From: an uncultured delta proteobacterium
GTDB lineage: Bacteria > Myxococcota_A > Polyangia > Polyangiales > Polyangiaceae
NCBI GenBank assembly: GCA_963696385.1
Contig: CAVOKF010000007.1
Location: forward strand, 1,344,001-1,408,000
Direction of reading: 5' to 3'
Length of the DNA: 64,000 nt
The notes beneath the pieces are model-generated. The model was not told the DNA's origin. It made no database searches and saw only the letters and a program-made list of their open reading frames with translations. The position numbers were made by a program, and so were the translations under genes. Shown here in pieces: positions 12,928 to 55,188 of this stretch; within the stretch, counting starts at the first letter, position 1, and each line of letters starts with the position of its first letter.

Positions 12928-13016
12928 GCGAGTAGGCGGCGCAAAGCTTGTCGGCCGACGAAGAGACGCGGAAACCGCCGCGGTCACATAAAAGGCCTTT
13001 GGGGCGCTCGTTGTCA
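12928..13016 (+). repeat. 110-bp site copy B, part 1 (resumes 14967-14987)
   Basis: Rejoined exons give 110 bp; right arm identical to copy D. Confidence 0.9.
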
Positions 13017-14966
13017 GTCGGGTAGGCCGGGGATGTTGTCTCCCCGGCCCCCCTTCGGATCCGGACGTGCGCAATTCACGCATCCGGCTCTTCGGTCACG
13101 GGTTCGCTGCGCGCGGGAGAAATGGGTGAGCGATGCGAGGCGGCGGGAGCGGGTAGCGCTCCAGCAGAAGCCGCATTCGCTTCCAAGGCATATGGCGTCG
13201 TTGCGACCGGCGGTTGAGCCACCGGCGCCACAACGCAATAGTCTTGCGGCAGAAGAGCGCGATGGCGCGGAAATTCCCGGTGATTCCGTAATATCCGTAG
13301 TGACCACGCAGCTTTTGCCCAAGTGCCTTCTGCTGCTCGCGGATGGCGTCGTGCCGGTGCTCCCTGCACCATTGCGCGACCCGCGACACCGCTCTCCGGA
13401 AGCGGTCTTTGGCTGTTTTGCGCATGACAATCCACTTGCCAGAGCGAGCTTTGCCCCAGTAGTGCGTGAAGCCGAGTAGGTCGAAGCTGCCAGGACCTCG
13501 GTCGCCGCCATCGACTTTCGATGAGCGACGGTCAGGGCGCTGAAACTCCACCAACCGCGTCTTCTCGGGATGCAGCGCCAGGCCGTACGCACCCAATCGC
13601 TTCGGCAGCACGTCCAGCACCTTGCGGGCATCCACTTCATGCGAAAACAAAAGCACTGCATCGTCCGCGTAGCGGACGAGCAGCGCCTTGCCCGAAAGCC
13701 TTGGTTTAACTTCGCGCTCAAACCAGACGTCGAGCACCTCGTGCAGGAAAATGTTCGCCAGAATCGGCGAAATCACCCCGCCCTGCGGTGTGCCCGTTTC
13801 CGGATACGCAATGGCTCCGTCTTCGAGCACGCCCGCATTCAACCACTTTCCGATGAGCCGCAGCAGCACTCCGTCGTGCACCCTGCGGCGTAGGACTTCC
13901 CGTAATTTCCCGTGGTCCAGGACGTCGAAGAACTTGCGTACGTCGACCTCGAGGACCCACCCGCCACCCATCATTACCGCTTGATTCTGCAGGGTCTCGA
14001 GCGCTTGATGCGCCGAGCGCCCCGGCCGGAAGCCGTACGAGCAGTCCAGAAAGTCCTGCTCGTAGACCGCCTCCAGCACCATCGCGACCGCGCGCTGCAA
14101 TACCTTATCTTCGAAGCTGGGAATGCCGAGCGGTCTCGTTTCCGAGCCGCTCCCCTTCGGGATATGGACTCGCCGCACCGGCGGTGCTCGGTACGTACCA
14201 GACTTCGCGCGTTCGAGAAGCGACTGCAGGTTGCCCTCCAGGTTTTCCGCATACTCTTGCGCGCTCTGCCCGTCTACGCCACGAGCCCCGTCCTTGCGTG
14301 TGCGTCGGTACGCTTCGCGGAGCCAGTCGGTATCGATGTGATGGGCAAGCGTTCGGAACGCCATATCGGGCGCGTCCTTCGCCAGCTTTGCTATCCGTTC
14401 GAGTTTCGTTGAGATGGGAATTGAGTTCGGCGCCTCGGCCATCGTTCCCTCCAGCGGTTCCGTGTTTTCCGGTGCCGCCCTTTGCTCGGCGGGGTCCCTT
14501 GGGACGGTTCCCCCGCGTCGTCGCTCCTACTGCGGCACTCCGACTTCCCGTCGCCCATCGCGCTTGGCTTCGTTGCCTTCGCCGCGCACTACCGCCGCAA
14601 TTCAACAGCCGGAGGCGCCGGGATATCCCAGGTTCCTGGACCGTCCTTTGCGTACATGCCCTGCTGTTCACCCCGGCAGAGTCGACGGGCCAGGCCTTCG
14701 GGCTCGCCCGACTTTTCGGCACGTCGATGTTGCCTTCCGCGTTTCAAAACGCGTCGGCCTCCGCGAAGAGACGGATTTCGAGGCTCTTTGCACGGCCTGC
14801 ACGCCCGCTGTGTACGCTTCGCAGCCGCGATTGCTCGCGAACCACGCAACACTCGCTTCCGGCTGGCGGCCCCGCCTTGGCCGGTCGGGAATTTCACCCG
14901 CGGACGGTTACGTGAGGTTTCCGCTCTTACATGTCTTCCTCCTCACCCAGGCTTCGCCTGGCGCAC
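13017..14966 (-). mobile_element. Group II intron 1 (probably class E)
   Basis: 5' GTGCG at 14966; DV 'GAGCCGGATGCGTGAATTGCGCACGTCCGG'; 3' ..CCTACCCGAC; intron-free target present at 17153-17262. Confidence 0.93.
13096..14442 (-). CDS. ltrA: Group II intron RT/maturase (no endonuclease domain)
   Basis: 'RPLGIP', '[17 protein letters not shown]', 'RYADD', domain X. Confidence 0.95.
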
Positions 14967-14987
14967 TTGAAAGCGCCGTCCCAATTG
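14967..14987 (+). repeat. 110-bp site copy B, part 2
   Basis: TTGAAAGCGCCGTCCCAATTG, as in copy D. Confidence 0.9.
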
Positions 14988-14988
14988 A

Positions 14989-15190
14989 GTGTCCTGCCTT
15001 TCTGCGAAGTCGTTCACCGGACAGGAATTCCATCGCCTTGCAGCGACGGCGACTGACGCGCAGCTGGAGACGGCGCAGATCGAGTTGGCCCGGGCCGCAG
15101 TGTCGAAGTTCGACCTCGGCACGAATGTGCTCGCGTTCGACACGACGAATTTTGACACGTACATCGCCACAACAACCGAGGGAGCAGCTG
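14989..15190 (+). pseudogene. IS1634-like transposase internal fragment
   Basis: 'NVLAFDTTNFDTYI' resembles the first catalytic Asp region. Confidence 0.5.
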
Positions 15191-15416
15191 CTGCTTCTTG
15201 ACGGGCGCAGAGCTCGAGGGCGCCGGCTCGGTCCGCGTCGAGCCCATCGGGGCACGCGAGCCGTTGCTCGAGCTTTCGGGTGATCTTGCCCGCACCCTTG
15301 GCGATGGGGGTCCCGATCGCGCGCAAGTGGCACGTTGAGTCTCGTCCCCTCGCGCAAGGGCGTTCTCGCTCGCTGCTCGGAGAAAAGCGCCTCGTCGCAC
15401 TTGACGGTCAAATGGA

Positions 15417-15465
15417 AGCCGGTCGAAAGCGTATCGGTCAACGAAGAGCCGAGGAAGCCGCCGCG
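15417..15465 (+). repeat. 110-bp site copy C (partial left arm)
   Basis: AGCCGGTCGAAAGCGTATCGGTCAACGAAGAGCCGAGGAAGCCGCCGCG; no core. Confidence 0.8.
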
Positions 15466-15566
15466 ATGGCCGCGCGACCGGCAAAGCACCTTCCGGCGGG
15501 CTGAACCCAACCCAAGCGGGCACGACAAGTCCAGGTCTCCCCTGCCCCGTCGGGCGTACTTGCGGT

Positions 15567-16778: not shown

Positions 16779-17152
16779 GGCGGTTATCTCCTCGTTGGTA
16801 GCGCGGTTGGCCCGTCTAGAATGCGATTCGAGGAGACAGTGTCCATTTCACTGCATTGCAGCGAGCAGTCCGAGCTTGTGGCTCAGCTTCAGGGCAACGA
16901 GTTTGCGGTTGGGCGGTAAGCGTGCAACGCGCCCCACTGTTTACCTGAGTTCAAGAAAGGTTCAGGGGGTCGGCGTCCGAGCGATCAAGCCACTGCCAAC
17001 GGTTCGGCAAGCTTCTTGCCCCGGTACACCTCGCGAATGTGGGCGAGCACGTTGAGACGGTCGTCGCGTCGACGTCGTTGCCGTGGCGGCAACAGAGCGC
17101 GGCCGTGTTCGGCGACTTCACGCCAGTGGTTTGATGAGGCAGAGGCCAGGCG

Positions 17153-17262
17153 GCGAGTAGCCGGTCGAAAGCGTATCGATCAACGAAGAGCCGCGGAAAC
17201 CGCGGCGGTCACATATAAGGCCTTTGGGGCGCTCGTTGTCATTGAAAGCGCCGTCCCAATTG
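17153..17262 (+). repeat. 110-bp site copy D (intact)
   Basis: GCGAGTAG...GGTCACATA TAAGGCC TTTGGGGC...CCCAATTG. Confidence 0.92.
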
Positions 17263-17349: not shown

Positions 17350-17967
17350 GTGAGAGGGATAGGCTGGCTCTTTGCTCTGATATTCGGGGTCGTTCTAGTC
17401 GCCGCCGCAATGGGGTCACGCGATCGGGTCAGCCAGATCCGTGAGACTACGATGGCCTCTCCGGTCTCGCCCGCGACCACGACCGCGGCGGCGCGGGACA
17501 TCGAGATACCCGAGCGCGCCGTGATGCGTGCATGGATCGCAGGTGCGCCGCAGACCGACGAATTGCAAGCGTGTCTGAGCGCGCTCGGCTACGACGTGGG
17601 TCCGATCGACGGAATCGACGGCCCGAAGACGACGTCAGCCCTCAAAGCTTTCGTCGCGGGCGGCGAGCCGTCCGACGAACGCACCCGAGTCTGTTGGCGG
17701 GCCATCGAAACGAGACGAGCCTTCGATGCTATCGCTGTGCAGACTGCGCCGCCCGCGGTCGCCCCTGCGCCGACGTACCTACCGGCCTCTCAACAGGCGG
17801 CAACGGCTGCCCGGCAGACGGGTCCGGGGGCAGAACTGCCCGGACTGCCCGCCGCGGGCTACGGCGACGTCTCGAACACGACGGGCCTGCCGCGGACCCA
17901 GTGCGTGAACGGCTACACGCGGAAAGACGGGACCTACGTTGCCCCGTATTATCGGAGTCACCGCTAG
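17350..17967 (+). CDS. Exported peptidoglycan-binding domain protein
   Basis: N-terminal TM/signal; 'LQACLSALGYDVGPIDGIDGPKTTSALKAF'; C-terminal 'VNGYTRKDGTYVAPYYRS'. Confidence 0.8.
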   Translation: MRGIGWLFALIFGVVLVAAAMGSRDRVSQIRETTMASPVSPATTTAAARDIEIPERAVMRAWIAGAPQTDELQACLSALGYDVGPIDGIDGPKTTSALKAFVAGGEPSDERTRVCWRAIETRRAFDAIAVQTAPPAVAPAPTYLPASQQAATAARQTGPGAELPGLPAAGYGDVSNTTGLPRTQCVNGYTRKDGTYVAPYYRSHR

Positions 17968-19095: not shown

Positions 19096-19101
19096 CCGCG
19101 C

Positions 19102-20537: not shown

Positions 20538-22064
<1,527 letters not shown>

Positions 22065-26153: not shown

Positions 26154-26197
26154 GTCGAGTAGCCCCGGGCGCTTACTGGCCCCGGGGCCCTCGCCGG

Positions 26198-28199
26198 GTA
26201 GGGTCGAGGACTGGCGCGGTGGCGTGCAGGGGGGCCAATCTGTTTCCGTCCCTTTCGGTTGACGGTGCCTCACTTGCCTCTCCATCGCTCCGTTTCCAGT
26301 CCCCGCCTCGTCCAACGGAGCAGGCGGATTTCCCGCACTCCGCTGTCCTGCCAGCTTCGCGCCAAGGTTTATGGGACCTATCGTGCTGGGAGCGCTTTCG
26401 GCATGTCCTGCCGCGGAGCCACTCGGTACCCATTGAAGAGCCCGAGCGTTCCGTAGAGCCATGACCTACTCCACCTCTTCCAGCCGAAACCGGGCAGGTT
26501 CCGGGCACGCATCAGATGTCGCCTCACCTTCTTCTCCACCCAGTCCTTGACGAAGCCGAAGCATCGGCTCGAGTGACCCACTCGAAAGTATTGCACCCAT
26601 CCGCGTAGAATCGGATTGATAATCTGCACCACCCGCTCCACCGGCTGGGACTGAAAACGTCGGAACACGTCCTTGAGCTTGCGCAGCAGCGCCGTCCGTT
26701 TCTTGCGTTGCGGCGTCAAATGCGGACGCCATTCACCGCGGAGACTGCGGATGCGACGAAAGTCAAAGCCGAGAAATCCGAAGCTCTCGTCTTTCGAGAG
26801 GTCCACGAGTCGACTCTTGTCTTCGTTGATTTCCACGTGAAGTTTGCTGAATTCTTCCCGGAGTCTACGGTTGACCGCCTGCAGCAACCAGGCATGGCGT
26901 CGGTAGGCGTCCACGAGGACCACAAGATCGTCAGCAAAGCGCGCATATTCGACATATGCGTACTTGCCTTCGGCCGTGACCTGTTTGGCGCGCTCGAGCA
27001 TCCTATCGACCTCATTGAGGTACAGGTTGCTGAGCACGGGTGAAATTACCCCGCCTTGGGGAACTCCCCTCTTACCGGATGCTTTGAGAATCATCGACAG
27101 GAGAGTCATGACCGCATCGTCGTTCACGCGCTTTGCGACTTTTTCGAGCAACACATGATGCCGAACGTTGTCGAAATAGGCTCGCAAATCGATGTCGAGG
27201 ATCCGGGTCTTATTCCTGACGACGGCCTCCGCTACCCGGCGGACCGCGCCATGCTGCGACCGCTTCGGGCGGTAGCCGTAGGACCCCGGTTGGAAGTCAG
27301 CTTCGAAAATGGGTTCCAGAATGAGCTTGAGTGCCCCCTGGACCACACGGTCGCGGATTGCAGGTATCGAGAGGACGCGAGTTTTGCCCCCATCCTTCGG
27401 TATCGCTTTCCGACGGTTCCGCATGGGTCGATACTGATGCGAGACTAGTTCGTCCCGTATCTGCCCGAGGAACTTCTCGACGCCGCTTGCCTCGATGGCC
27501 TCGAAGGTGACGCCGTCGATACCCGGCGCTCCATCGTTCTGCTTAACCATCTCGTAGGCGGCCTCAATCGTTTCCGTCTTGCAGACGTGGACGTACAGTC
27601 CCCAGAAACGCCAGGTTGGTTCAGCCTTCGCCTTCGCGTATATCCTCCGTCTCAGGTCCTGCAGACTAATAGGCGCCTTTATCATATCGCCCCTGCCTTC
27701 CGTTTCGTAAGAGGAATTACCAACAGCAGGGCCGCTTCGCTCCACGGGCATTACCCCGCTTCGACGCTACTACCGGCCCCTCCGCCACCCTTTCGCCTTC
27801 GGCCGACTTCCCGGGGTTGCCGGTTATACGACCTACCTTTTTCCGTCGATTTCTCGTCGGGGCGAGGAGGGCTTCTCCAGTTTCCAGCGCGTTCTTGTCT
27901 CCGTGCCGTCGCTACCACCCCGCCGGAGCGGTCCACCACGTCAACCAGTTTGTGGTGTGCCGTGCTGCCTTCGCCCTCCGGTTGAGGGCTCGGCCTCCGG
28001 GGTTTCTCCTTTTCGGGGCCACCTCTGCGTTCACTTTCGTTACGGCCCGGGGACTCGCTCACCATCCTTGCGATGGCTTTGTCAGTGGGCTTTAGGTCAT
28101 CGATTTCTCTCCTTCCTACCACTCAAGCTACGAGGCCTCTGGTTCTTAGCCTCGGTGGGACTGGCTCCCACAAAACGCGCCAGCCTTAGCTGGACGCAC
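26198..28199 (-). mobile_element. Group II intron 2 (probably class F) inserted in DV of intron 3
   Basis: 5' GTGCGTCC at 28199; 3' ..CGACCCTAC at 26198; upstream exon is DV 'GAGCCGGATGGTGGAAATCTCCTTGTCCGGTT'. Confidence 0.88.
26378..27685 (-). CDS. ltrA: Group II intron RT/maturase
   Basis: 'LQDLRRRIYAKAKAEPTWRFWGLY', PQGG, 'RFADD'. Confidence 0.93.
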   Translation of the reverse strand: MIKAPISLQDLRRRIYAKAKAEPTWRFWGLYVHVCKTETIEAAYEMVKQNDGAPGIDGVTFEAIEASGVEKFLGQIRDELVSHQYRPMRNRRKAIPKDGGKTRVLSIPAIRDRVVQGALKLILEPIFEADFQPGSYGYRPKRSQHGAVRRVAEAVVRNKTRILDIDLRAYFDNVRHHVLLEKVAKRVNDDAVMTLLSMILKASGKRGVPQGGVISPVLSNLYLNEVDRMLERAKQVTAEGKYAYVEYARFADDLVVLVDAYRRHAWLLQAVNRRLREEFSKLHVEINEDKSRLVDLSKDESFGFLGFDFRRIRSLRGEWRPHLTPQRKKRTALLRKLKDVFRRFQSQPVERVVQIINPILRGWVQYFRVGHSSRCFGFVKDWVEKKVRRHLMRARNLPGFGWKRWSRSWLYGTLGLFNGYRVAPRQDMPKALPAR

Positions 28200-28253
28200 A
28201 ACCGGACAAGGAGATTTCCACCATCCGGCTCTTCCGCTGAGCTGGCTCGTGGG

Positions 28254-28793
28254 TTACGTCCCCCAGATTCGGACCTTGATGCGGGGACGCGGGAGAGGAA
28301 GACGCTGCAGAAGCTCGTCATACTTTTCCCAGGTGAGGTGCGCTTGTTGGCTCCGACGGCGGAGCCACTTATACCAAACTCGCCTCGTCTCTTCGGCAAA
28401 CAGAAGCAGACTGCGAAAGTTGCCGCTGATGCCGAAATAGTTGAAGTGACCTTGGATGCGCCTCGTGAGCGCGGCGTGCTGCTCCTTGACCGGAAGGTGT
28501 CGATGGCGACGACACCAGTCCGCGACGGCTTGAATCGACCGTCGTAGGCGCGCACTCCGTGTCTTGCACGTCATTCCCCATCGACCGCTTCGGGAGCGCT
28601 GCCAGTACAGCGTGAATCCCAGAAAGTCGAAGGTGGCCGGACCCTTGCCGCCAACTTGCTCCGCCGGCGGACGCCGGAAGGGCAAGAGGCGGGTCTTGTC
28701 CGGGTGCAGGGTCAGCCCGAAACGCCCCATCCGCTTTCCCAGAACGTTCCATCACACGCTCCGCGTCGTCCTGATGTTCGAATGTCATCACGA
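28254..28793 (-). pseudogene. ltrA: Intron 3 RT, C-terminal exon (+1 frameshift near 28747)
   Basis: 'FVMTFEHQDDAERVM' then 'RFGLTLHPDKTR..FDFLGF' in the next frame. Confidence 0.8.
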
Positions 28794-30672
28794 GGTGAGT
28801 AGGCTGGGGGAATTTCACCCCCAGCCTCTCTCAGAACCGTACTTGAACGTCTCCGCTCATACGGCTCCCATCATCCAACCGCCGGCTTCAGCCCCAGCAA
28901 CTGCCAGTGCGCGAAAAGCCGAGGCTCGCGGCGACCGATGCCTCCGAGCCAATGCTCAGCTCGGCGACGGTGTCGTCGCAGCCTTTTGAATTTCCTCATG
29001 GCCCAACGGACGAGCAATCCGTTGAAGTGTCGGAAGACCGAGTGCAGGGCAGACTTGTAGAACCGACCGTAGTACTGGATCCAGCCCCGAAGGACTGGGT
29101 TCCACATGCGTGCCAAGTCGTCGATGGCCTTGTCGCTCCGCAGAGGAATCCGCCAGCGTCGCATTTCCTGTCGCATCCGCTTCGCCGCGTCGTTGCTGAC
29201 GGCGGGGGTGAAGTTCACGAAGAACTTCCCCCGCCGATTCTTCGACCGGCGAGGACGGAACGTGTACCCGAGGAAGGTAAACTTCTCCTCGGGATAGCGC
29301 CCCTTCCTATCGTCATCTTTGCAGTAGACGATGCGCGTCTTCTCGGGATGCACTTCCAATCGGCAGTGCGCGAGTCGACGCTTGATGTTCGCCAGGACCT
29401 GCTGTGCTTGCTTCTCCGTCTTGCAGTGCGCCACAATATCGTCCGCATACCTCTCGAACGGCACGTCCGGATGCGTTGTGCGCATCCATTCGTCGAACGC
29501 GAGATGCAAGAAGATATTTGCCAGAAGAGGACTCGCTACCCCGCCTTGCGGAGTCCCCTTCGTTCGCGGTACCCGCGTGCCATCCTCCAGTTGCACGGGG
29601 GCTTCCAGCCACCGCTTTACATAGAGAAGGACCCACGGGCACGGCGTGTACTTGCCGACCGCGCGCATTATCAGCGCGTGGTCGAGGTTGTCAAAGAAGC
29701 CTCGGATGTCCAGGTCGATGACCCAGTCGTATCGCCAGCATCGCTGCCGGGTCGCCGCCAGAGCATCGGCTGCAGACTTCCGTGGCCTGTACCCATAGGA
29801 ATCGGGGTGGAAATGCGGCTCCACTTCCGGTTCCAGATACATCTTGACGACCGTCTGGGCGACCCGGTCTGAAACGGTCGGTATGCCCAGACGCCTCTCG
29901 CCTCCGTCTTTCTTCGGTATCGCTACCGACCGAACGGGCGGCGGGAAGTACGTTCCCGACGACATGCGATTCCAAATCTTATAGAGGTTGTTCTTCAGAT
30001 TCTTCTCGAACTCCTCGATGGACTCGGAATCGACTCCGGCCGCTCCGCCGTTCGCCTTCACCCGCTTATACGCTTCCCACACCGCCATTTTGGAAATGCT
30101 ATACGGCTTGGCTTGGCTCGGCGGCTCCTCCCGCTTCCGCGGTTGACCGTCGATACAAGCCGAATGACGCGACCCCCTCGCTCCATCGGGTTTCCCCGGC
30201 TTCTCCGCTACTACGGGCCGCTCCGCCCCTGTGCCTCGCATCGGTACTCTCATCCTCGTGGGGCCTCCACTTGGACTTCTCCCTTAACATCGAGGCGACA
30301 GGTTCCCACGTTCCACACAAGGGCCTGGTCTCGGTTCACGCCACCTTTATGCCGGATGCCGCCCAGGCCAGCTGCAGGTTCCTCCTGGGCTTGTCCCGGG
30401 CAAACGACTCGTCCCGGTTTTGACATCGTTCCTACGCTTTCGACACGTTTCCGGTGGTTCATTCGCTTCGTCTCCCGAGGCCTCACCTGACGCGATCATC
30501 GCCGCGCCTTTTCCATCGACGCGCACCACCCCGGCTCTTTACCGGAGCAGCTCGTGGTGGTTTGGAGCCGGTGCCTGCCGACCGACCCGAGGGGCCTACC
30601 CTCATCCCTTGTGCAGCAAGGCAGCGTTTTAGTTGACCATTTCGGTCTCCCTTCCGCGCCGTCGTGGCGCAC
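28794..30672 (-). mobile_element. Group II intron 4 (class D, RmInt1-like) inserted just after YADD of the intron 3 RT
   Basis: 5' GTGCGCC at 30672; 3' ..CTACTCACC at 28794; splicing restores YADD-F-VMTF. Confidence 0.9.
28871..30123 (-). CDS. ltrA: Group II intron RT/maturase (start uncertain; first ATG 30088)
   Basis: 'VWEAYKRVKANGGAAGVD', 'LYKIWNRMSSGTYFPPPV', 'FERYADD'; CCG sits at the expected start after GGAGGAG. Confidence 0.9.
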
Positions 30673-31453
30673 AGTCGTCCGCATAACGCACGAGGTGAGC
30701 TTCCCCGCGCAGACGCGGCTTGACATCGCGCTCGAACCACAGGTCCAATACGTAGTGGAGATAGACGTTGCCGAGTATCGGCGAGAGCACGGACCCTTGC
30801 GCTGCGCCCGTGTCCGGCTCGGCGTATTCCGAGCCGTCGAGCACCCCAACGTGCAAGCACTTGCCAATCAGCCGCATCAGCGACCCATCGGCCACCCGAA
30901 TTTGGAGCATCTCCTTCAGCTGGGTGCGATCCAAGCTGTCGAAGAAGGACACGACGTCGGCCTCCAAAATCCAGCTCACCTTACCCTGATGCGCAATACG
31001 GTCGAGGGCTCGAATGGCGTCATGGGCACCGCGACCGGGCCGGAAGCCGTACGAGCATTCCAAAAAGTCCTGCTCGTATATCGCCTCCAGCACTTCGCGT
31101 AGGGCGTCCTGGACCAACTTGTCCTCGTACGCAGAAATCCCAATCGGCCGTGTCTTGCCCCTTTCCTTTGGGATGTGAACACGCCGGATTGGCTGATGGC
31201 GATACTGCTTCGCCACCAACCGCTCGTGCAGGCTTCGGAGATTTTCTTCCAGGGCCTGCCCGTACTGCTCCTTCGTGACCCCATCCACGCCGACCGCCGC
31301 ATCGTTGCGCATGCGCTTGTCGGCTCGCATCAAGGCGGGCACATCGATAAGATGTGCCAGCGAGTGGAACCGTCCTTCGGGCTCCCTTTTCGCTCGCTCC
31401 ACTACCTTCAATAGTTTCGGTGACATGTCTTCCAACGTCGATGCGTCGGGCAT
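30673..31453 (-). CDS. ltrA: Intron 3 RT, N-terminal exon
   Basis: 'RFHSLAHLID', 'RPIGI', 'AQGSVLSP', 'RYADD'. Confidence 0.88.
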
Positions 31454-31799
31454 GGTTCCGTCCTGAAGTTCAACTCAGCACGGGCCGCCTTTGCTCGGCC
31501 GGGTCCGGGGTGCCAATCCGTTCCCCGACGTCCACGCTCGTATGCGGCCCTCCGACTCCCCCGCTTCAGCGGCGCCTTTGGAGTGATCCACTTCGGGTCA
31601 CCGAAGTGATCCACCCGTCGCGGGGATCGGGGTGTCAGCGGCGGCGGGATCGTGACCCACCCCTTGCTATCGGAAAGGGCGCGCGTCAGGGCCGGTGGCT
31701 CGCACCCGAGATGCTCGGCCGGGCGAAGGGGGGAACCGCCAAGACGCCGGTAGGACTCGCGAGCGCTCGGGCCCGCGGCTCAGTGCGGGAGTCCGGCTA

Positions 31800-32114
31800 T
31801 CAGAAGGTGTTGTCGTCGGTGGGATCGTGCGCGGGTGGCATCGCCGCTTCGCGGACGGCGTGGCGGTAGCGCCAGAGCGTTTCGCGCAAGGTGGCGGCCC
31901 TGCGGCAGATCGTGTGGGCGAGGAAGACGACAGGGCCTTGGTCGCGTGGCCTATGGAAGTCGTCGATGAGCGTCTGGTGCTCGGCCAAGAGCGCGTCGGC
32001 AGCGAGGTCGAGCGCGTGTTCGAGCAGAATGATGGAGGCGAGCTCCGGCGCGACGACGAGGTCCGGGACGCGGGGCGGAGGCGGAGCGGGTGGAACGCGG
32101 CGCGGGCGCCTCAC
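31800..32114 (-). CDS. Small IS-borne hypothetical protein
   Basis: Copy of 7773-8087. Confidence 0.6.
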   Translation of the reverse strand: MRRPRRVPPAPPPPRVPDLVVAPELASIILLEHALDLAADALLAEHQTLIDDFHRPRDQGPVVFLAHTICRRAATLRETLWRYRHAVREAAMPPAHDPTDDNTF

Positions 32115-32974
32115 GGCGCCGTCGCCCGAGTGGGTGCGACCGGCTTGCCGGCACGCTCGGCAGCGACGTGCTGGCGGTAGCTCGGTCCGTCGATGTCGAT
32201 ACGAATGGCATGCATGGCGAGCCGATCGAGAATGGCGGCGGCGACGGTCGCGTCTCCCAGGTAGCGTCCCCACTGGCGCAAATCGATATTGGAGGTGACC
32301 GCGGTCGAGAGCTTGCCGTGCCTGCGATCGACGAGGTTGAAGAGAGTATGGGCGGCGGTGGGCTCGTCGTCGCGCTGGCGCACCTGCCCCAGGCCGACGT
32401 CGTCGATGACGAGCAGGTCGGGTCGTGCCCAGGCCTTCAGGCGTCGGGGGTAGGTGCCGTCGGCGAGGCCGGCGTGCAGGTCGGCGAGCAGGTCGACGCA
32501 CCGCGCGTAGCGCAGGGAGATGCCCTGCACGCAGGCGCGCAGGGAGAGAGCCTTGAGGATGTGACTCTTGCCGGTGCCGCTCTTTCCCGTGATGACCAGG
32601 TCGTCGTGGCGCCTGACGAAGTCGAGGCGGGCGAGCTCCAGCACGAGGCTCTTGTCGATCGAGGGTTGGAAGTCCCAGTCGAAGGCCTCGAGTGTCTTTC
32701 GCTCGACCAGGCCGCTGACCCGGATACGCCGGTCCAGGCGTGCGGCCGACTTGTGATCGACCTCAGCGGCCAGGACGTGCTCGAGCAGGGCGGTGTGTCC
32801 GGGTCGCTCGCGGGTGGCCCACGCGAGCCAGTCGTCGAGCGTGGAGAGCGTATGGGAGAGGCCCAAGTAGCCGAGGTGCCGGCGCAGGCGATCGATCACC
32901 ACGACGGCCTCGTCAGAGGCCGGGCCGGTCACCCGGTCATTGGAGTCTGGTTTATCCGTTTTGGTCTTGGCCAT
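32111..32974 (-). CDS. istB: IS21 helper ATPase
   Basis: Copy of 6913-7776. Confidence 0.95.
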   Translation of the reverse strand: MAKTKTDKPDSNDRVTGPASDEAVVVIDRLRRHLGYLGLSHTLSTLDDWLAWATRERPGHTALLEHVLAAEVDHKSAARLDRRIRVSGLVERKTLEAFDWDFQPSIDKSLVLELARLDFVRRHDDLVITGKSGTGKSHILKALSLRACVQGISLRYARCVDLLADLHAGLADGTYPRRLKAWARPDLLVIDDVGLGQVRQRDDEPTAAHTLFNLVDRRHGKLSTAVTSNIDLRQWGRYLGDATVAAAILDRLAMHAIRIDIDGPSYRQHVAAERAGKPVAPTRATAP

Positions 32975-34526
32975 CGGCGGTCTCCACGGGGCGGCGGGTG
33001 GCGAGCGGCAGAGCGTCGTACTCGGCCAGATCGCGGGGGCGTGTGACGACGGGACCGAGCGCGTCATCGATGCGCTTGGCGGTGTCTTCGGCGACGTACT
33101 CGTCGAGGGTCCGGGGCGGAGCGCGTCGGGCGAGGATGCGCTCGACCGAGGCCGCGTCGAGCGCGCCGAACCGAACGGCGTGCGCGAGGGCGGCGTCGAC
33201 GTCGGCGCTGTCGTAGCGGGCACGCAAGAGCAGGATCTGCCGGGCGTGGTGGGTCCAGACACGGGTCACGTGGGCGCCCGAGAGCTGGAGCAGGAACGCG
33301 GCGGCCCCGTCGCCCATCTGCTCGAAGGTGGCGCGCAGCTTGTCGACGTCGATGGGCGACCGGCTCTCTGGGCGAGGATGCAGCCCGAGCGGATCGATCT
33401 TGTCGCCGCGTCCGCGCGGTCGCAGCTCATAGCGCGCCAGGCAAGCGAGATTCGGCCCGTAGACGAACAGCTCCGTCTGCGTGATGCGCAGCGGCAGGAA
33501 GTCGGTCACATGGTCGTACGGCACGGCGTAGCGGTTACCGAGCCATTCGACGTACCCGTCGATGCTGCAGAGTCGATACGTGACCCGGGCGGTGTCGTAC
33601 GGATGCTTGGGCAGCGGCCGCAGATGAGGCGCCTCGTCGCGAAACCGATCGAGGGCGGACAGCCCGTGACGCTTGCGCGGGTCGACGACGCGAACGAGCC
33701 AGTCGGCGAGCTGCGCGGCGAAGTCGTCGCGATCGCGAAATGAGCGGCCGTTGAGAAACGATCGCTCGTGCTCCCAGAAGCTGCGTTCGACGCGCGGCTT
33801 GGCGTTGGGTTTTCCTCGCACGGCGGCGGGCTGAATGCCGTAGTGCGCGGCAAAGGCGAGATACCGAGGATTGTAGATGGGCTGGTGGCCTTCCCACCGG
33901 AGCACGACGGGCTTTTGGCTGTCGTACTTGCAGCCCGCGGCGCAGCCGCCGAAGCGCGCGAAGGCGCGCTCGTGGCCGTCCATGAGCGCGAACAAGTCCG
34001 GCGAGCCGAAGACGTCGAAGGACTTGCGCTTCGAATAGACCAGGACGTACGAGAACAGCTGCACAGTCTCGGAGAGGCCGGTCGTATACGTGAGCGTGTA
34101 GGGCGACCAATCGTTTTCGGCCATCTCACCCGGTCCGAACACCGGAGCTTCGAGGCTCGGCGTCGGCTTGGCCGCTGGCCGCACGCGCCGCATCTGCTTC
34201 TTGACGGCGGTGTAGCCGCCTTGGAATCCCTCGTCCTTGAGGATCTCCAGCACGCGCTGCGCGGTGATGTCCGGGTAGCGCGCGAGCAACTCGCTCACGC
34301 GACCCTGGTAGGCGTCGATCTTGCGGGAACGCGGCGCGCGCACGGGCGCAGCGGCCAGCGCGGCGTGCCCGTCGTCGCGCTCGCGACCGTGGGTCCGAAG
34401 GATCTTCTTGATCGTGTTCCGACTGACCCCCAGCGCCCGCGTGATGGCGCGCCGGCTCATCCCCTGGGCCGTCAACACGACGACCTGGTGGATCAATTCC
34501 TCGCGAGAGCGCCAGTGCACCGTCAT
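32952..34526 (-). CDS. istA: IS21 transposase
   Basis: Copy of 5361-6935. Confidence 0.92.
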   Translation of the reverse strand: MTVHWRSREELIHQVVVLTAQGMSRRAITRALGVSRNTIKKILRTHGRERDDGHAALAAAPVRAPRSRKIDAYQGRVSELLARYPDITAQRVLEILKDEGFQGGYTAVKKQMRRVRPAAKPTPSLEAPVFGPGEMAENDWSPYTLTYTTGLSETVQLFSYVLVYSKRKSFDVFGSPDLFALMDGHERAFARFGGCAAGCKYDSQKPVVLRWEGHQPIYNPRYLAFAAHYGIQPAAVRGKPNAKPRVERSFWEHERSFLNGRSFRDRDDFAAQLADWLVRVVDPRKRHGLSALDRFRDEAPHLRPLPKHPYDTARVTYRLCSIDGYVEWLGNRYAVPYDHVTDFLPLRITQTELFVYGPNLACLARYELRPRGRGDKIDPLGLHPRPESRSPIDVDKLRATFEQMGDGAAAFLLQLSGAHVTRVWTHHARQILLLRARYDSADVDAALAHAVRFGALDAASVERILARRAPPRTLDEYVAEDTAKRIDDALGPVVTRPRDLAEYDALPLATRRPVETADGQDQNG

Positions 34527-35440
34527 GCCCTGCTCGCTCTCTCGGTCACGGCGGTGATCGTTTTCATCAGGCCGCCCAACACGCCATGGAGGTTGCTGAG
34601 ATCGGGGCCCACGACGTCGGCGGCGGGTCCCAACGCGTCGAGCGGCATCCCGGCCAAACAGGCCTGAAGTCGCCCCGCGCTCCGTCGAATGGTCGTCACG
34701 TCGAGCGCGATCGTCTCGGCGATGCTCCTTGCCGTGCGTGGGCGGCCGCGGCGCGCAGGCCGACCCCCGTCGCGCCAGCGCGCCAGCACCGCCTCATGCC
34801 CCGGCCCCGAGTCGTCCGCGAGCTCGCGCACCAAGAGGGCCGTCTGCCGCACGGTGAGCCCGCGACGGATGACGACCGCGGAGACCGCCGGCTGGTTGCC
34901 ACGTGGCAACGCGCCGACGAGGATCGCTGCCCGCGGCGCGAGCAGCCCGAGTCGAACGTCGGCTTGGACCGACGAATCGAGCGCTTCGACCAGCATCAGG
35001 CGGCGACAGACCCAGCTCTTGTGGCAACGAAGCAGCGCAGCGATCGCCCCTTGCGTCACGTGATGCTCTCGATGCAGGGCGCGCACGATCCACGCCTCCT
35101 CGAGCGCGGTGAGCCCGCGGCCAGCGTGCAGCTCGCGCATCTGCACGGTGGCATCGACGGCGCCAAGGTCGGTGACGACGGCGCGCAGATCGCGAAGGCC
35201 CAGCCCTCGCGCGGCGCGTAGCCGCTTGAAGCCGTCGAAGATCTCGACGGCGCCATCCCGCTCGAACGCGCGCACGGCGGAGAGCTGGCCGTGCTGCTTG
35301 AGCGACGCGCGCATGGCGGCCAGCGCGCAGGCGTCGGCGAGGCGCAGCCGCGACAGGCCCTCGCCGAGATCGGCGACGGCGACGAGGCGCTCGGCTTGAG
35401 CAGCGGCGGTCACGGCCGCGAATCCACCACGACTCGTCAC
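34523..35440 (-). CDS. ParB/Spo0J-like protein
   Basis: 'SLKQHGQLSAV', 'IFDGFKRLRAA', 'LTALEEAWIV', HTH 'TQGAIAALLRCHKSWVCRRL'; ATGA-coupled to istA. Confidence 0.85.
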   Translation of the reverse strand: MTSRGGFAAVTAAAQAERLVAVADLGEGLSRLRLADACALAAMRASLKQHGQLSAVRAFERDGAVEIFDGFKRLRAARGLGLRDLRAVVTDLGAVDATVQMRELHAGRGLTALEEAWIVRALHREHHVTQGAIAALLRCHKSWVCRRLMLVEALDSSVQADVRLGLLAPRAAILVGALPRGNQPAVSAVVIRRGLTVRQTALLVRELADDSGPGHEAVLARWRDGGRPARRGRPRTARSIAETIALDVTTIRRSAGRLQACLAGMPLDALGPAADVVGPDLSNLHGVLGGLMKTITAVTERASRA

Positions 35441-35907
35441 CCGGCACGAGACCGGCCCGTGACGCTGTCCAGGTCCAGGCCCGATCGGCAGCCGTTTTCC
35501 CCAGCTTCCAGCGCGCAGGGTAGCTCGTGACATAGGCCCGCTCTGTCCACTTTGGCGGGCCCAAAAGGGCCGATTTTCCGCAGAATTCGCCCCAGATCGC
35601 GGCGGAGGGTAGCTCGTGACAGGCTCGCGGCCTTGTCCACGATCTGCTGTACTTTACGCAATAAATCCACGCTGTTGCCGTCCGAGGGTAGCTCGTGACA
35701 TCCGGCTGCCTTGGCGCCGTCCCGGCACCTTTGCTGGCGTGCGCGCTCGTCGGCCCGCTGCTCGTCCAGGTCGTTGCGCCGCCTCCGGCGCGCCTGACGG
35801 TTGCGGCGCTGGCCGCGGCACCCCTCTCCGCACACGACTTGGTGATCGAGCGCGCTCACGGCAGGCGTGAACCACTTCCGGCACTCGCTGCATCGACGCC
35901 TGGACAT
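35437..35907 (-). CDS. Cys-motif hypothetical protein
   Basis: 'CSECRKWF...VCGEGC'; GTGA-coupled to the ParB-like gene. Confidence 0.6.
   Translation of the reverse strand: MSRRRCSECRKWFTPAVSALDHQVVCGEGCRGQRRNRQARRRRRNDLDEQRADERARQQRCRDGAKAAGCHELPSDGNSVDLLRKVQQIVDKAASLSRATLRRDLGRILRKIGPFGPAKVDRAGLCHELPCALEAGENGCRSGLDLDSVTGRSRAG
35517..35700. repeat. Three perfect 16-bp direct repeats AGGGTAGCTCGTGACA
   Basis: At 35517-35532, 35606-35621, 35685-35700. Confidence 0.9.
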
Positions 35908-36594
35908 CGACGCCAGCGTCCGGCGAGACGCCCTCGATCGCGCATTCCACGGCGCCCCCCTGGATCACGATCCCGCCGCCCGCGGCCGCCCCTTCAGGCC
36001 GTGCCGTGGATCACGATCCCGCCGTGCGGTGGACCACGACGAGGGCGCCGCTGAAGCTCCCCCGCTCCCTTCGGCCGTGGCTCCGGTCTCCCCTCGCCAG
36101 CGGCCTACCTCGGCGCGAATGCTTGTTCTGCGCGGAGCCCCTCACGGGGGGGCGCTCGGCCGGCCGTGCGCGCATCCGCGTGCGCTCGGCGCGTCGGAGA
36201 CGGGTGACCGGCTCTCCGTTGCTCCGGGATGTCACCGAGGAAAAGCGAGGGCCTCCCAGGTGTCTGGTTCGTCCTCTTGTGGCGTGCCGTGGTCGTAGAC
36301 CCCGCCGGATGCGGCTCCTGCTCGCCCTGCTGCGCAGCAGCCGCCGTCGCCTTCGCGCCGCCCAAAGCGCTCGGCATCCGGACTGATGTAGTTTTCGTGA
36401 CTGCATTCCCCACGGCCCACTCACTTGCGTGACTACGCATCGCCGAACGCCTTGCGGCGGCCGGCGCAAGCCTCGCTTTCGGCTGGACGGGCTCGGCCCT
36501 TCGCCGGGCGGGGTTCGCACCCGCTGGACGACTCTCTGAATTTTATGAGCTCATCGCATCTCATTCCTTTCAGACCAGCCTTGCCTGGTCGCAC

Positions 36595-36610
36595 TGAACG
36601 GCCTACTCGC
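36595..36610 (-). repeat. 110-bp site copy E, part 2 (5' exon of intron 3)
   Basis: rc GCGAGTAGGCCGTTCA. Confidence 0.85.
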
Positions 36611-39860: not shown

Positions 39861-39982
39861 CAATTGGACGGCACTTTCAATGGCAACGGACGCTCCTAAG
39901 ACGCAGATTAAGACGCGATATGTTTTCGCGCCCGCCTCCGCGGGCTCTTCGTCGACCGGCAGGCTTTGAATGGGCTACTCGC
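39861..39982 (-). repeat. 110-bp site copy F (122 bp; duplicated core)
   Basis: rc ..AAACATA TCGCGTC TTAATCTGCGTC TTAGGAGC...CCAATTG. Confidence 0.88.
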
Positions 39983-40592: not shown

Positions 40593-40606
40593 CTCTGGAG
40601 CATCGC

Positions 40607-41737
40607 TAGTGCACCGCCGTCGAGATGCGATCAAGCATTCGGCGGTGGCTCTTGATGATCGCGTTGGCCGGCTTGGTCCATGCGAATGGCGTCGGGTTTG
40701 AGTTCCAACTCCGCGTGTAGGCGGCGAGATGTTCGCGGAGGCCCTTCTTGGAGGGGAAGTCCGTCTCACTCAAAGCTGCTTGCCCAGGATGCCGAAGAAG
40801 CCCTCCACCTGGTTGAGCCAGGATGCACTGGTCGGGGTGAAGTGAAAGGTCACGCGGGGATGCTGTTCGAACCAGGTCTTGACCTCGGGAGTCGAGTGGG
40901 ACGACGAGTTGTCGAGGATGACGTGAAGCTCCTGCGAAGGATAAGCGCGGTCGACCTTGTTCATGAACGCGAGGAAGTCGGCCGCGGTGTGCGATTCACT
41001 GACGCGGTGAGTTACTTTACCGGTTGCGACTTCGAGCGCCGCGTAGAGGTCGACAACGCCGTGGCGCTTGTAATCGTGCGTGCGGCGCCGCGCGCGTCCG
41101 ACGCGCAAAGGCAAAGGCAGCTGCGTGCGCTCGAGGGCTTGGATCGAGGTTTTCTCGTCAACCGAGAGGACAACCGCATGCTCGGGCGGGGCCACATACA
41201 GGCCGACGACGTCCTTCACCTTCGCGACGAACTCCGGGTCGCGGCTCACCTTGTACGTCCGCGACAGATGCGGCTTCAGTTCGCATCGACGAAGGACATC
41301 GGACACGCACCCGCTCGTGAGACCGACCTGCTTGGCGAGCAGGCGCGTCGTCCAGCGACTGCGTCCCGCCGGCGGAGGCGACATGGCAAGCTGCACCAGG
41401 CGCTCCACTGTGTCGACAGGCACTGCGTGATCTTTGCGACCGGCCTTCGGCCGCTCGAAGATCCCTTCGACGCCCTCGCTGCGGAAGCGGGTCCGGATGC
41501 GTGATACCGCCTCGACGGACAGATCGAGACGGCGCGCATCTCACTGCTCGACACCCCTGCAGCGCTCAGCAGAATCACCCTCGCACGTCGGACAAGCCCC
41601 GCAGCCTCGGACGGCCACGCGACAATTCTCTCAAGCTCCAGGCGTTGTGCAGCATCGATCTTGACCAACGGCGTTGCGGGCATGATGCCAGAACCCGCGA
41701 CGCTCGCCGTTGATTCCATCTCGACGGCGGTGCACTA
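40607..41737 (-). mobile_element. IS630-family element 1 (transposase from 41683, frameshifted)
   Basis: Perfect TIR TA-GTGCACCGCCGTCGAGATG; 'SVDEK', 'ILDNSSSH', 'ASWLNQVE'. Confidence 0.9.
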
Positions 41738-42934
41738 GTACCCCGATTCTACGGAATGGAAGGGTAGAGGCGGCGCAGCTTGATGCGTGCGTCCGCCGTG
41801 GTGAAGCGCCAGTTGACCTTGCGGTCGGGTCGCGAAGCCTGCCACGCGGAGACGATCGTGTGGAGCGCGCCGATGCTGCCGACGCGCTGGTCGAGACACT
41901 GTATCGATAGGGTCGAGAGGAAGATTTCGGCGACGTTGAGCCAACTGCCGTGCTTGGGGGTGTGGTGAACCTCGAACCTCTCGACCAGACGACGAGCCTC
42001 TTTGGGCGCGAATGCTTCGTACAGGCACGAAAGATCGTGGATGTTGAGGTTGTCCATGACCAAGACGATGACGGTCGCGGTTGCGTAGGTCTCGTCGGAC
42101 AGGCGGGCTAAGAAATGCGCCATGTCGACGGCCGTGCGTCGCTCGGTCACTTCGACGACGGATTGCCCGGTCAGCGGTTCCACGGCAGCGAAGATGTTGG
42201 CTGTGCCGCACCGCTTGTATTCGTCATCGACGCGGGCCGGTGTGCCGGGGCTCGCAGGAACGGGCTGGCGGGTGTGCTCGAGCAACTGCTTGCTGGTCTC
42301 GTCGAGACAGACCTGCGGCCGGTCCGGATCATAGGGTCGATGGTAAACGTCGAGCACATCCTCCATGCACTTTACGAACGCCGCGTTTTCCTCAGGCGGA
42401 ATGCAGAAGCGCTCTACAAGCCAGGGCTTGATTTCGTTTTTTTTAGACCGCGCTGGACCGTGCTCGGGCTGACGGAGTCGAACACCTTCAGCTCGACGAG
42501 TCGGTCCGCGAGAAGCGAGATGGTCCACCGTGCCCGCCCTGCGGGCGGCTCACTGCAAGCAATCTGAACCAGCCGCGCCTCCGAGGCCCCGTCGAGCTTT
42601 CGCGGCCGCGACGGGGTGTCTTGGGGCTTGCGCTCCAGGCACGCTTCGACGCCGCGCTCGCAGCAGCGCTTGCGCACGCGCTCCACCGTGACGAGCCCGG
42701 CCTCCAAGTCGTCCGAGATTTCCTGATCGGTCAGCCCTTCGTCGGCTTTCAGCAAAATGCTTGCGCGAAGCCTTTTCAGGCCCGAGACGCGCTCACGCTT
42801 CACGAGCTGCGTCAGCGCCGCCCGCTCGTCCACCGTCAGATTCACTACGTAGCGCTTTTTCATGGCCCACCATGGAGCACGCCCTCGTCGCCATGGAAAG
42901 CAAAACCCGTCGCGTCAATGGATTCGAGGTACTA
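41736..42934 (-). mobile_element. IS630-family element 2
   Basis: TIR TA-GTACC(C/T)CGA(T/A)TC; shares a TA with element 1. Confidence 0.88.
41749..42863 (-). CDS. IS630 transposase, two ORFs joined by a likely programmed frameshift at A8 (~42440)
   Basis: orfA HTH 42414-42863; orfB 'CLDETSKQL', 'MDNLNIH', 'HGSWLNVAE'. Confidence 0.88.
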
Positions 42935-53517: not shown

Positions 53518-53592
53518 CGTGTCCAAAGCGGCGACCGTACGCTTCGCGCGGGGCGATGGTCCACGAGCGAGCCAGGCCGCCTCGACGGTTGA

Positions 53593-53664
53593 GCGAGTAG
53601 GCGCTCCAAAGCTTGTCGGCCGACGAAGAGACGCGGAAACCGCCGCGGTCACATATAACCCGTT
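53593..53664 (+). repeat. 110-bp site copy G, part 1 (resumes 55151-55188)
   Basis: Left arm nearly identical to copy B; rejoined length 110 bp. Confidence 0.9.
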
Positions 53665-55140
53665 CATAAGTTGGTACTTAGGGATTCGGGATGGCGCTCG
53701 CTACCACACAAGTGCGAGTGGCTCGAGGCCCATAGCGAGACGTCCGCGCTTTCGATCGCGAGCAGGATGAGCGCGGCGCGCGTTGGAATCGAGGAACTTG
53801 AGCGTTTCGGCGAGGGCACGACGTAGTTGGCGCGGCGAGTCGAGAAGGCCGCGGAGGACATCGTCGAAGTAATGCTTGCCGGACGCGGCGGCTCGCTGGG
53901 TCGAAAGCTCCACCCCCAGCGACGCTTCCGCGAAGTGTGCGAGCGAGCGTTTCAGAAGGGCTGCGAGCAGGCTCGCCCATATCATCGCTTTCGCGATAGC
54001 GGCCTTGCCCGTATCGAAGGCATGAAGGTTGGCGTGGGATTTGAACTCTTTGAACAGGAGTTCCACCTGCCAGCGGAGGCGATACAAGCCGGCCACGTCG
54101 GCGGCGGAGAAGCGCTTGCGGGCGAGGTTGCTGTGCAGGTACACGAACGTCTTCGCGTTGCGCTTGCCGCGCTTGTAGATCGCCACAATTCGCCCGCGAT
54201 ACACGAATGAATTCGCCTGCCATTCGATGTCGAGATCGACCGTCTGGGCCGGAAGCAGGTCCCAGTTCAACTTCTGGCCGAGCAACTTGGGGATGGATTT
54301 GCCGGCGCTGTCGAAAGCGGCCCGAATGGTGGGTCGAATGTTTTTGGTTCCGCGGACGATGAAGGCGCCGCCCGCTTGGTCGACGTCGAAAAAGAATGTT
54401 CGCTCCTCGTACCCTCGGTCGGCCAGAAAGAGCCGCTCGCGAAGACTCGCGGCCTCGGGACGGTAGGTTCGCTCGGTCTCCTTGTCGGCCGTCAGGGCGA
54501 CGATGCGCACATCGTCTTGGAGCAGACTCATCGTGACGTGCAGTTCCACGGCGGCTGGCGAGATTTTCGTAAAGCGGCCCGGCCATGTGCCTTTCAAGTC
54601 GTCCTTGAGCGCGAACGACGTCCCGTCGTGAATGACGATGTCCCGAAAGGTCGACAGTTTGGGGGACACGGCGTGCAGAACCGGCTGGCTCATCTTCTGT
54701 ACCGTCGCTTCCAGCAGCATCCGAAACATCTCTGGAAAGGACGCTTGCGCGAGCCGGTTGTGAAAGGGCTTATATCGCAGCGAAAGGCCCGCGAATTTCC
54801 GGAACGTCCGCAGAATATCGGCCAACCACTTGGCGTGGCCCGACCCGAGCGTGGACAGCACCGCCACGACCATCGCCAGCGGCATCACCTTGCGCACTCG
54901 CCGTAGCCAGCCGCTACGTCTCGCGATCGCGGTCACCTGCTCCTCGCCGAGTACTTCCGTAAGCCGTTTCGCATACACGCCGACTCCGGCGCGTGTACTG
55001 TTTGATCCGTGCATCGGGGGTCTCCTTTCGCGTTGTCTCACAACAGCGTCTAGAGAATCCCCGATGCCTTTGACTATCCAATTCGTGCACTATGCACGTA
55101 AGTGATCGAGATCACTCGGGAAATAAAGATCCTACCTATG
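53665..55140 (-). mobile_element. IS4-family element inserted in the core of site G
   Basis: Ends CATAAGTTGG/CATAGGTAGG; 10-bp TSD ATAACCCGTT (53655-53664, 55141-55150). Confidence 0.92.
53701..55014 (-). CDS. IS4-family transposase
   Basis: 'HDGTS', 'ADRGY', YREK 'YRLRWQVELLFKEFK'. Confidence 0.92.
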   Translation of the reverse strand: MHGSNSTRAGVGVYAKRLTEVLGEEQVTAIARRSGWLRRVRKVMPLAMVVAVLSTLGSGHAKWLADILRTFRKFAGLSLRYKPFHNRLAQASFPEMFRMLLEATVQKMSQPVLHAVSPKLSTFRDIVIHDGTSFALKDDLKGTWPGRFTKISPAAVELHVTMSLLQDDVRIVALTADKETERTYRPEAASLRERLFLADRGYEERTFFFDVDQAGGAFIVRGTKNIRPTIRAAFDSAGKSIPKLLGQKLNWDLLPAQTVDLDIEWQANSFVYRGRIVAIYKRGKRNAKTFVYLHSNLARKRFSAADVAGLYRLRWQVELLFKEFKSHANLHAFDTGKAAIAKAMIWASLLAALLKRSLAHFAEASLGVELSTQRAAASGKHYFDDVLRGLLDSPRQLRRALAETLKFLDSNARRAHPARDRKRGRLAMGLEPLALVW

Positions 55141-55150
55141 ATAACCCGTT

Positions 55151-55188
55151 AGGGGCTTCCGCCGTCGCTGTAATGGCGAACCGATTTG
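55151..55188 (+). repeat. 110-bp site copy G, part 2
   Basis: AGGGGCTTCCGCCGTCGCTGTAATGGCGAACCGATTTG. Confidence 0.88.

Follow-up and report, generated by a model that had tools for sequence, protein, structure and literature searches.

The window analysed here is a 64,000-nucleotide stretch of the genome of an uncultured delta proteobacterium, a soil myxobacterium (contig C7, positions 1344001-1408000, of G000, a 6.94-Mb assembly in 8 contigs that is 96% complete), and its gene content is myxobacterial-looking (Ser/Thr kinases, PEGA, FGE-sulfatase, sigma-54 activators). It carries six full copies of a repeat of about 110 nucleotides (nt), here called the site, and three of these are split by another mobile element: site B by group II intron 1, site E by group II intron 3 and site G by an insertion sequence (IS) of the IS4 family. 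A preliminary description of the locus had reported that half of the full sites were hit, and this was confirmed (3/6, with each element in the arm or core that had been named). Its limits, 12928 and 55188, were exact, as they coincide with the opening base of site B and the closing base of site G, and its estimate of about 660 bp of sites agrees with the 671 bp to which the six full copies sum.

Read in its sense direction, the site runs (R)GCGAGTAG ... TCGGTCGACGAAGAG ... CGCGG ... ACAT-ATCGCGTCTT-AGGGGC ... CGTTGTC ... CGATTTG, and in one subfamily the right end is CAATTG instead of GATTTG. A profile was built from the three intact window copies and searched with nhmmer against the G000 contigs (E <= 0.01). 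This returned 93 matches, full or partial, which cover 8,749 bp or 0.126% of the 6.94 Mb and are concentrated on C2, C6, both ends of C4 and both ends of C7. Alignment showed 49 of the 93 to be full length, with sharp ends on both sides and unrelated flanks. The site is a discrete interspersed repeat, found in islands rich in mobile elements. Eight of the matches lie within the window. Site A (12203-12311, minus strand), site D (17153-17262, plus strand, an empty target for intron 1) and site F (39861-39982, minus strand, an empty target for introns 1 and 3) are intact and matched by nhmmer, site F being 122 nt long with a 12-nt internal duplication; partial site C (15417-15465, plus strand) spans profile positions 16-66 only. 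Rfam matches over the window were confined to introns, so the site corresponds to no known RNA family there. A coding element or shared stop codon was rejected: the TAG of GCGAGTAG terminates no open reading frame (ORF) of >=100 aa in either B or D.

Site B (plus strand) is divided by intron 1 into a first part at 12928-13016, comprising the left arm, the core and the start of the right arm, and a last part at 14967-14987, the remaining right arm. The intron (13017-14966, 1950 nt) lies on the minus strand, antisense to the site, where the first part is its 3′ exon (starting TGACAACGAG) and the last part is the end of its 5′ exon (...GGGACGGCGCTTTCAA); the insertion point is thus in the right arm. 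It matches Rfam RF02005 over domains D1-D4 (14662-14894; 127.4 bits, cut-off 49) and RF00029 over D5/D6 (13017-13092; 40.5 bits, cut-off 40), and its boundaries, GTGCGCC...CCCGAC, conform to 5′ GUGYG / 3′ AY. The reverse transcriptase (RT)/maturase ORF (13099-14442; TIGR04416, 337.8 bits, cut-off 300) encodes a protein of 448 aa in which the RT/maturase match occupies residues 40-412. No other domain appears, and as this leaves no room for one outside the match, an endonuclease domain is probably absent.

Intron 3 occupies the left arm of site E (minus strand) in the sense orientation. Here the first 16 nt of the left arm (36595-36610) form the end of its 5′ exon, and the intron starts at 36594 after ...GGCGAGTAGGCCGTTCA. 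Its 3′ end is not near 36000; it lies at 26154, 10.4 kb from the start, and the rest of site E (left-arm remainder, core and right arm) follows from 26153 down to 26060. The boundaries, GTGCGAC...CTCGAC, again conform to 5′ GUGYG / 3′ AY, and the match to RF02005 scores 103.6 bits (cut-off 49). The distance between the two ends reflects a nest four deep within 26154-36594 (minus strand), in which the intron's own segments are 26154-26252, 28200-28793, 30673-31565 and 36057-36594. Intron 4 (about 26253-28199, minus strand; RT ORF 26381-27751) sits directly after D5 of intron 3, which was recognised by eye at 28201-28232; its 3′ boundary is approximate, being taken from the Rfam D5/D6 match. Intron 2 (28794-30672, minus strand; RT ORF 28874-30253) splits the RT gene of intron 3 in its YADD-coding stretch, and the RT fragment at 30632-31453 matches RVT_1. 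Domain IV is split by a 4.5-kb insert (31566-36056, minus strand) that bears an IS21-type gene pair (32114-34526) and an ORF with a ParB-type helix-turn-helix (34526-35533). A simpler copy at C6:18186-22244 has intron 4 as its sole nested element; compared with it, the window copy has gained intron 2 and the IS21-bearing insert, while intron 4 is present in both.

The IS4-family element (53665-55140, plus strand, 1476 bp) has imperfect terminal inverted repeats, with ends CATAAGTTGG / CATAGGTAGG, and a transposase ORF on the minus strand (53704-55041; NF033592, 181.5 bits, cut-off 115, with a PF01609 match). It divides site G (53593-53664 and 55151-55188, plus strand) at the core. The left part of the site, 53593-53664, terminates in one copy of the direct repeat ATAACCCGTT (53655-53664); the second copy (55141-55150) begins the stretch 55141-55188 that includes the right part of the site.

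Insertion positions across the genome

For intron 1, all three readable 5′ junctions in G000 lie at one right-arm position (window, C2:77973, C7:1421802), and 3/4 readable 3′ junctions lie there too (window, C2:76034, C6:111773). The C2 copy occupies a clearly different variant of the site, giving two variants in all. The genomes used for comparison belong to the same genus, and among them G003 is the other site-rich one. It contains four 5′ ends of intron 1 that are 100% identical within the intron and have four different flanks, and all four read GGGACGGCGCTTTCAA↓ (here and below, ↓ marks a junction with the element). A relative at 92% identity (L020) comes after ...CGGTTCGCCGCTGCAG↓, by eye the same position in the other right-arm subfamily. 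Empty intron 1 target strings in G000 were in or beside sites in six of six cases. An intron 1 copy in a right arm (C7:1421593-1421868) breaks off 100 nt into the intron, where the outer end of another site (GCGAGTAG) interrupts it; this second site adjoins a remnant of an IS91-like tnpA gene (C7:1420967-1421413); four G003 contigs likewise end at intron nt 94-101.

In G000 all four 5′ junctions of intron 3 read GCGAGTAG(TAAGCC/GCCGTT)CA↓, in the left arm, and all four 3′ junctions read ↓AAGTGCGTCGGTCGAC.... The four 3′ exons are distinguished by internal differences and by right-arm subfamily, which indicates hits on no fewer than three or four separate sites. A 100% identical copy in G003 (L030) lies at this same left-arm position in a different left-arm variant, and relatives at 87-93% identity in G003 (L035, L038) and in a further comparison genome, G044 (L033), lie there in yet other left-arm variants; relatives at 71-82% identity sit in unrelated DNA. 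Empty intron 3 target strings in G000 were in or beside sites in 23/25 cases.

The IS4-family element was found at 20 BLAST loci in G000, where 13 left and 18 right ends had readable flanks. Fifteen of these 31 ends (5 left, 10 right) are in sites, 11 being detected by nhmmer and 4 as short halves recognised by eye. Every site-borne end is at one 10-bp core, ATCGCGTCTT or ATAACCCGTT; the element occurs there in both orientations relative to the site, and with at least five distinct left halves and at least eight distinct right halves. The 10-bp target duplication is identical on the two sides in 8/11 full copies. All 27 empty cores in G000 are in or beside sites. By an eye count, ATAACCCGTT is the core at 5 of the ~10 site-borne IS4 loci and at one of these 27 empty cores, which were defined by a strict pattern. 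Taking the site fraction of the genome (0.00126) as the null, and with the proviso that the ends are not all independent of each other, the binomial probability is ~1e-35 for 15/31 ends and ~1e-24 for 10/20 loci, and chance is excluded as the source of the IS4 ends found in sites genome-wide. The preliminary description had made its reading depend on whether other copies of the elements are enriched for the repeat. Both introns and the IS4-family element are strongly enriched in it, at the same positions as in the window.

Recognition of the site

Exon-binding site 1 (EBS1) was assigned to the ~9-nt terminal loop in D1 that the RF02005 model leaves variable. In intron 1 this loop is UUUUGAAA, of which UUGAAA (14742-14747) pairs 6/6 with the last six bases of the 5′ exon, UUUCAA. 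In intron 3 it is UUUGGGCG, of which UGGGC (36360-36364) pairs 5/5 with the GCCCA of the common left arm; with the GUUCA found in the window, the pairing includes two G-U pairs. The same loop was compared by eye with the exons of relatives inserted elsewhere, where five sequences were usable and six others were fragments that stopped short of the loop. The loop was complementary to its own exon at 6/6 positions in L022, L031, L032 and L034 and at 5/6 in L021, and this covariation of loop and exon supports the EBS1 assignment. Candidates for EBS2 were located in a homologous internal loop of the two introns. Intron 1 has CCGUC (14770-14774), facing GACGG at exon positions -14 to -10 and wobble-compatible with the GAUGG of the C2 variant, and intron 3 has ACUAC (36388-36392), facing GUAGU at -12 to -8. 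The preliminary description had suggested looking for an EBS1 and an EBS2 complementary to the 5′ exons that it named; for EBS1 this held, with complementarity and covariation, and for EBS2 it yielded candidate 5-nt stretches.

For the IS4-family element, a preference could be read from the copies that lie elsewhere. The targets of the five full copies that lie outside sites take the form T↓A-N8-T↓A, such as CTT↓AGAAGGCCCT↓AAG and GTT↓AACGCGCATT↓AGG, and the core of the site matches this motif. In one copy outside sites (C7:1416005-1417480) the left flank, GGACTCGAACCTGCGACC, is by eye tRNA T-arm-like, and the element may interrupt a tRNA gene there.

Insertion positions would thus be set by EBS1 base pairing in the case of the introns and, in the case of the IS4-family element, by a target motif common to the outside copies. 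According to this model, the site would be the main insertion target of three unrelated elements, each acting by its own sequence recognition. Intron 1 would retrohome into one right-arm subfamily, on its antisense strand, at GACGG-CGC-UUUCAA↓UGACAAC, pairing through EBS1 UUGAAA and probably also through EBS2 CCGUC. Intron 3 would retrohome into the left arm, on its sense strand, at GUAGU-AA-GCCCA↓AAG (the window copy has the wobble-compatible GUUCA↓ here), pairing through EBS1 UGGGC and probably also through EBS2 ACUAC. The IS4-family element would enter the core, duplicating ATCGCGTCTT or ATAACCCGTT, where the sequence suits its loose motif T↓A-N8-T↓A. Since such a target is multi-copy and would be dispensable, insertions would accumulate in it and nest; interruption of a site is presumably harmless, and retrohoming and transposition may still be active. 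We consider that convergence of the three elements on the site by sequence recognition is probably correct and best explains the observations as a whole.

Some observations weigh against this model. One intron 1 3′ end (C1:356974) lies outside sites, where it leads into another intron-like 5′ end, and no intact, un-nested copy of intron 3 was seen in G000. The candidate EBS2 pairings are 5-nt matches, and a search for covariation in relatives found no consistent register. Of the IS4 ends in G000, 16/31 are outside sites. In G003, with nine ends examined from 12 loci among 20 matches, one was in a site and one more, on C305, probably so, which suggests that the preference is strong in G000 and weaker elsewhere. 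Finally, the intron 1 sites at site B of the window, at C6:111773 and at C7:1421803 are the same variant, and the right half of site G is identical to that at C4:1147417, so that independent events must be fewer than copies.

An alternative is that the main draw is accessibility of the DNA, the site becoming single-stranded or bent for short periods, as it might when the neighbouring IS91-type transposase drives rolling-circle transposition, and so coming within reach of the IS as well as of introns lacking an endonuclease. Such a mechanism would suit an intron whose protein, as judged from the extent of the RT/maturase match, contains no detectable endonuclease domain: RmInt1, an intron without an endonuclease, is reported to use single-stranded DNA at replication forks as its substrate for reverse splicing (PMC8914252), and IS91 moves via single-stranded circles (PMC13181058). 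Moreover, every IS91-like tnpA 3′ end examined adjoins a site (6/6 in G000 and 1/1 in G044). However, RNAalifold applied to 49 sites, on both strands and with both RNA and DNA parameters, gave no consensus structure (about 0 to -1 kcal/mol), and DNA folds of three single sites, again on both strands, gave z-scores of -2.1 to +0.1, which are not significant. In addition, the two introns use opposite strands, and each insertion point is accounted for by EBS1 pairing or by the motif of the outside IS4 copies. We therefore regard accessibility as unlikely to be the main draw; a folded or single-stranded site, for which there is no support here, could modulate efficiency. The preliminary description had offered two causes together, and of these the notion of a safe haven, multi-copy and dispensable, fits the data, whereas that of an accessible, bent or single-stranded target is unsupported, no fold having been found.

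A second alternative holds that there were few real insertion events and that interrupted sites were later copied around by whatever moves or recombines them, so that recurrence reflects inheritance. The shared intron 1 variant and the shared right half of site G are as expected from such copying. Two IS4 copies have non-matching flanks, which indicates recombination between IS4 copies, and G000 and G003 have 100% identical DNA in common. Against this, at least five left and eight right halves, both core variants and both orientations are represented among the IS4 flanks, the 3′ exons of the four intron 3 copies show internal differences and come from different right-arm subfamilies, and the C2 copy of intron 1 is in a clearly different variant with a wobble-compatible intron-binding site 2. 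Relatives at 87-93% identity are at the same position in still other variants, and in the alignments the occupied sites seem to be dispersed through empty ones from many subfamilies. Inheritance of a few events as the source of the recurrence thus appears very improbable. Coincidence in a region dense in mobile elements (the window also has two IS21 copies, IS630-like ORFs, four introns and recombinases) is refuted by positions that are identical to the base over many copies in two genomes and by the binomial probabilities of ~1e-24 to 1e-35.

The IS91-like transposase and other neighbours

G000 carries transposase genes of the Y2 type (PF04986; represented by P0001), and the site has a constant position beside them. 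At each of the six tnpA 3′ ends in G000 a site is found 63-70 nt past the stop codon, always antisense to tnpA, and a 93% identical tnpA in G044 has the same arrangement. One of the six is in the window, where a C-terminal remnant of such an IS91-family transposase (55259-55597, minus strand) is separated by 70 nt from the end of site G that is its inner one; the remnant is 91% identical to residues 465-578 of P0001 and gives a weak ISCR match. The stretch between the tnpA stop and the site is palindrome-rich and ends ...GCTTTGGAT-N-TG(T/G)TC, with the site starting at the next base. Copies share 91-99% identity over the IS side (220 nt), while the adjoining sites are 72-95% identical and of different subfamilies (in the C4a and C2 copies, for example, the IS side is 99% and the site 80% identical). 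By these identities the site does not co-evolve with the Y2 transposase as one unit, and no site was detectable beside tnpA homologues of 60-69% identity in four other genomes. This leaves two readings: insertion of the IS91-like element next to sites, as a fourth targeting element, or a site that is an exchangeable end module of that element. A more far-reaching proposal, which we consider doubtful, is that the site is a free-standing "landing pad" repeat targeted by at least four elements (the two endonuclease-less introns on opposite strands, the IS4-family element in the core and the IS91-type element at the inner boundary). This shared targeting would be due to rolling-circle machinery that periodically makes the repeat single-stranded, and intron-laden sites would then be carried onwards.

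Other mobile DNA abuts the sites as well. The outer end of site D adjoins a diverged IS66-like end (window 16913-17152), which shares ~80% identity with one end of a 2.8-kb IS66-family element present at C4:49574-52399, C4:1140414-1143239 and C7:160551-163375. Truncated sites adjoin an IS1634-family element (C6:97156) and an IS66-family element (C4:49574) in one case each. Five sites in G000 (C2:119382, C6:58553, C2:75397, C7:94447, C6:48263) are broken at or close to the core, at profile positions 74-83, and run on into another common module (~100-160 nt, with TAATAGGCGATTGTGCGAC at its start); something besides the IS4-family element thus also breaks sites recurrently at the core.

In 30 further genomes of the genus, no contiguous counterpart was found for the flanks of site D or of site F. 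A 388-bp stretch of the window (17513-17900) is 100% identical to G003:C181:8149-8536 although most genomes of the genus are without sites, which points to recently shared mobile DNA. A stretch of ~90 nt at 40606-40696, beside IS630-like (DDE_3) ORFs at 40773-42528, recurs many times in many of the other genus genomes searched and is probably a separate small repeat or a terminal repeat. On the right-hand side of site G are a large serine recombinase split over two ORFs (55277-55909, 55970-58390), part of a type IV coupling protein (57536-58600, minus strand) and a tyrosine integrase (61705-63393), and the region 55277-63393 may be part of an integrative or conjugative element. At the other side of the window, a weak, degenerate site-like match (11608-11679) lies in the second of two tandem FGE-sulfatase-domain paralogues, which form repeats of 78-86% DNA identity (8938-11797). 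Because such genes are nearby, the site was considered as the template repeat of a diversity-generating retroelement; this was rejected, as the alignment showed no adenine-specific variation and the sites do not lie at the 3′ ends of genes.

Comparison with known systems

Integron attC sites are known to house both group IIC-attC introns and IS1111-attC elements, and the preliminary description had drawn an analogy with them. As at attC, a repeated recombination-type site that bounds gene cassettes, introns and IS both exploit the repeat. Membership of that class failed, however: the best match to the integron integrase model TIGR02249 in the 96%-complete G000 scored 68.5 bits against a cut-off of 265, and the imperfect palindrome of attC (a bulged R''-L''/L'-R' hairpin) has no counterpart in the absence of a consensus structure and with the z-scores given above. 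In contrast to the group IIC-attC introns, the introns described here have an EBS2-type loop and D1-D4 of the RF02005 type. Group IIC introns are associated with integrons (PMC7923331).

The REP-specific IS of other bacteria, namely ISPpu9, ISPpu10, ISPa11, ISPsy8, ISRm19 and ISRm22 (Tobes and Pareja 2006, PMC1525189), resemble the IS4-family element in that a transposase gene is found repeatedly at one position of a short interspersed repeat, which forms a transposition hot spot. The present unit, however, is ~110 nt long with no predicted hairpin, rather than a palindrome of 20-40 nt, and about half of the IS4 copies lie outside it, unlike the REP-specific IS. The element itself belongs to the IS4 family (DDE) and duplicates 10 bp; ISPpu9 is a member of the IS110 family (PMC12288879). 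Assignment of the site to REP sequences and their associated RAYT transposases was rejected, with no match to the Y1 domain of RAYT (PF01797) in G000 and the long, hairpin-free unit. With regard to the IS91 family, in which oriIS with its subterminal palindromes is followed by a target tetranucleotide (PMC13181058), the Y2 gene and the ~65-nt palindrome-rich stretch ending ...G(T/G)TC recall this layout of oriIS plus tetranucleotide. Canonical IS91 is described there with the tetranucleotide only and no long conserved target, whereas here the ~110-nt unit follows in 7/7 cases. The locus also bears on the relation between a rolling-circle transposon and the repeat beside it.

The closest parallel for the introns is RmInt1, a group II intron that homes into ISRm2011-2 of Sinorhizobium meliloti (PMC1802570). 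Like RmInt1, the introns described here have a homing site in a multi-copy mobile element and would thereby reach many copies in a single genome, and their protein, judged from that of intron 1, probably has no endonuclease domain. Unlike RmInt1, the target is a ~110-nt non-coding repeat and not a transposase gene, and two intron lineages use opposite strands and arms of one unit. A further difference is that no plasmid-borne intron RT found by tblastn exceeds 59.5% identity to the RT, the plasmid matches being only to unnamed "ltrA" genes. In literature on group II introns with IS91 or ISCR and on myxobacterial insertion sequences, covered in part and at the level of summaries, we found no description of this target.

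The locus is a clear and well-supported instance, though not the first, of mobile DNA that homes into other repeated DNA, a mechanistically ordinary new example of known behaviour. Within this otherwise ordinary nesting of mobile DNA in mobile DNA, the added interest is that three or four element families would converge on one unit of 110 nt, a clean natural example of several mobile elements meeting at one short repeat. The base-pairing rules predict which variants of the site each intron can enter, and the combination of close relatives, different EBS1 loops and different site variants offers material for group II intron retargeting.

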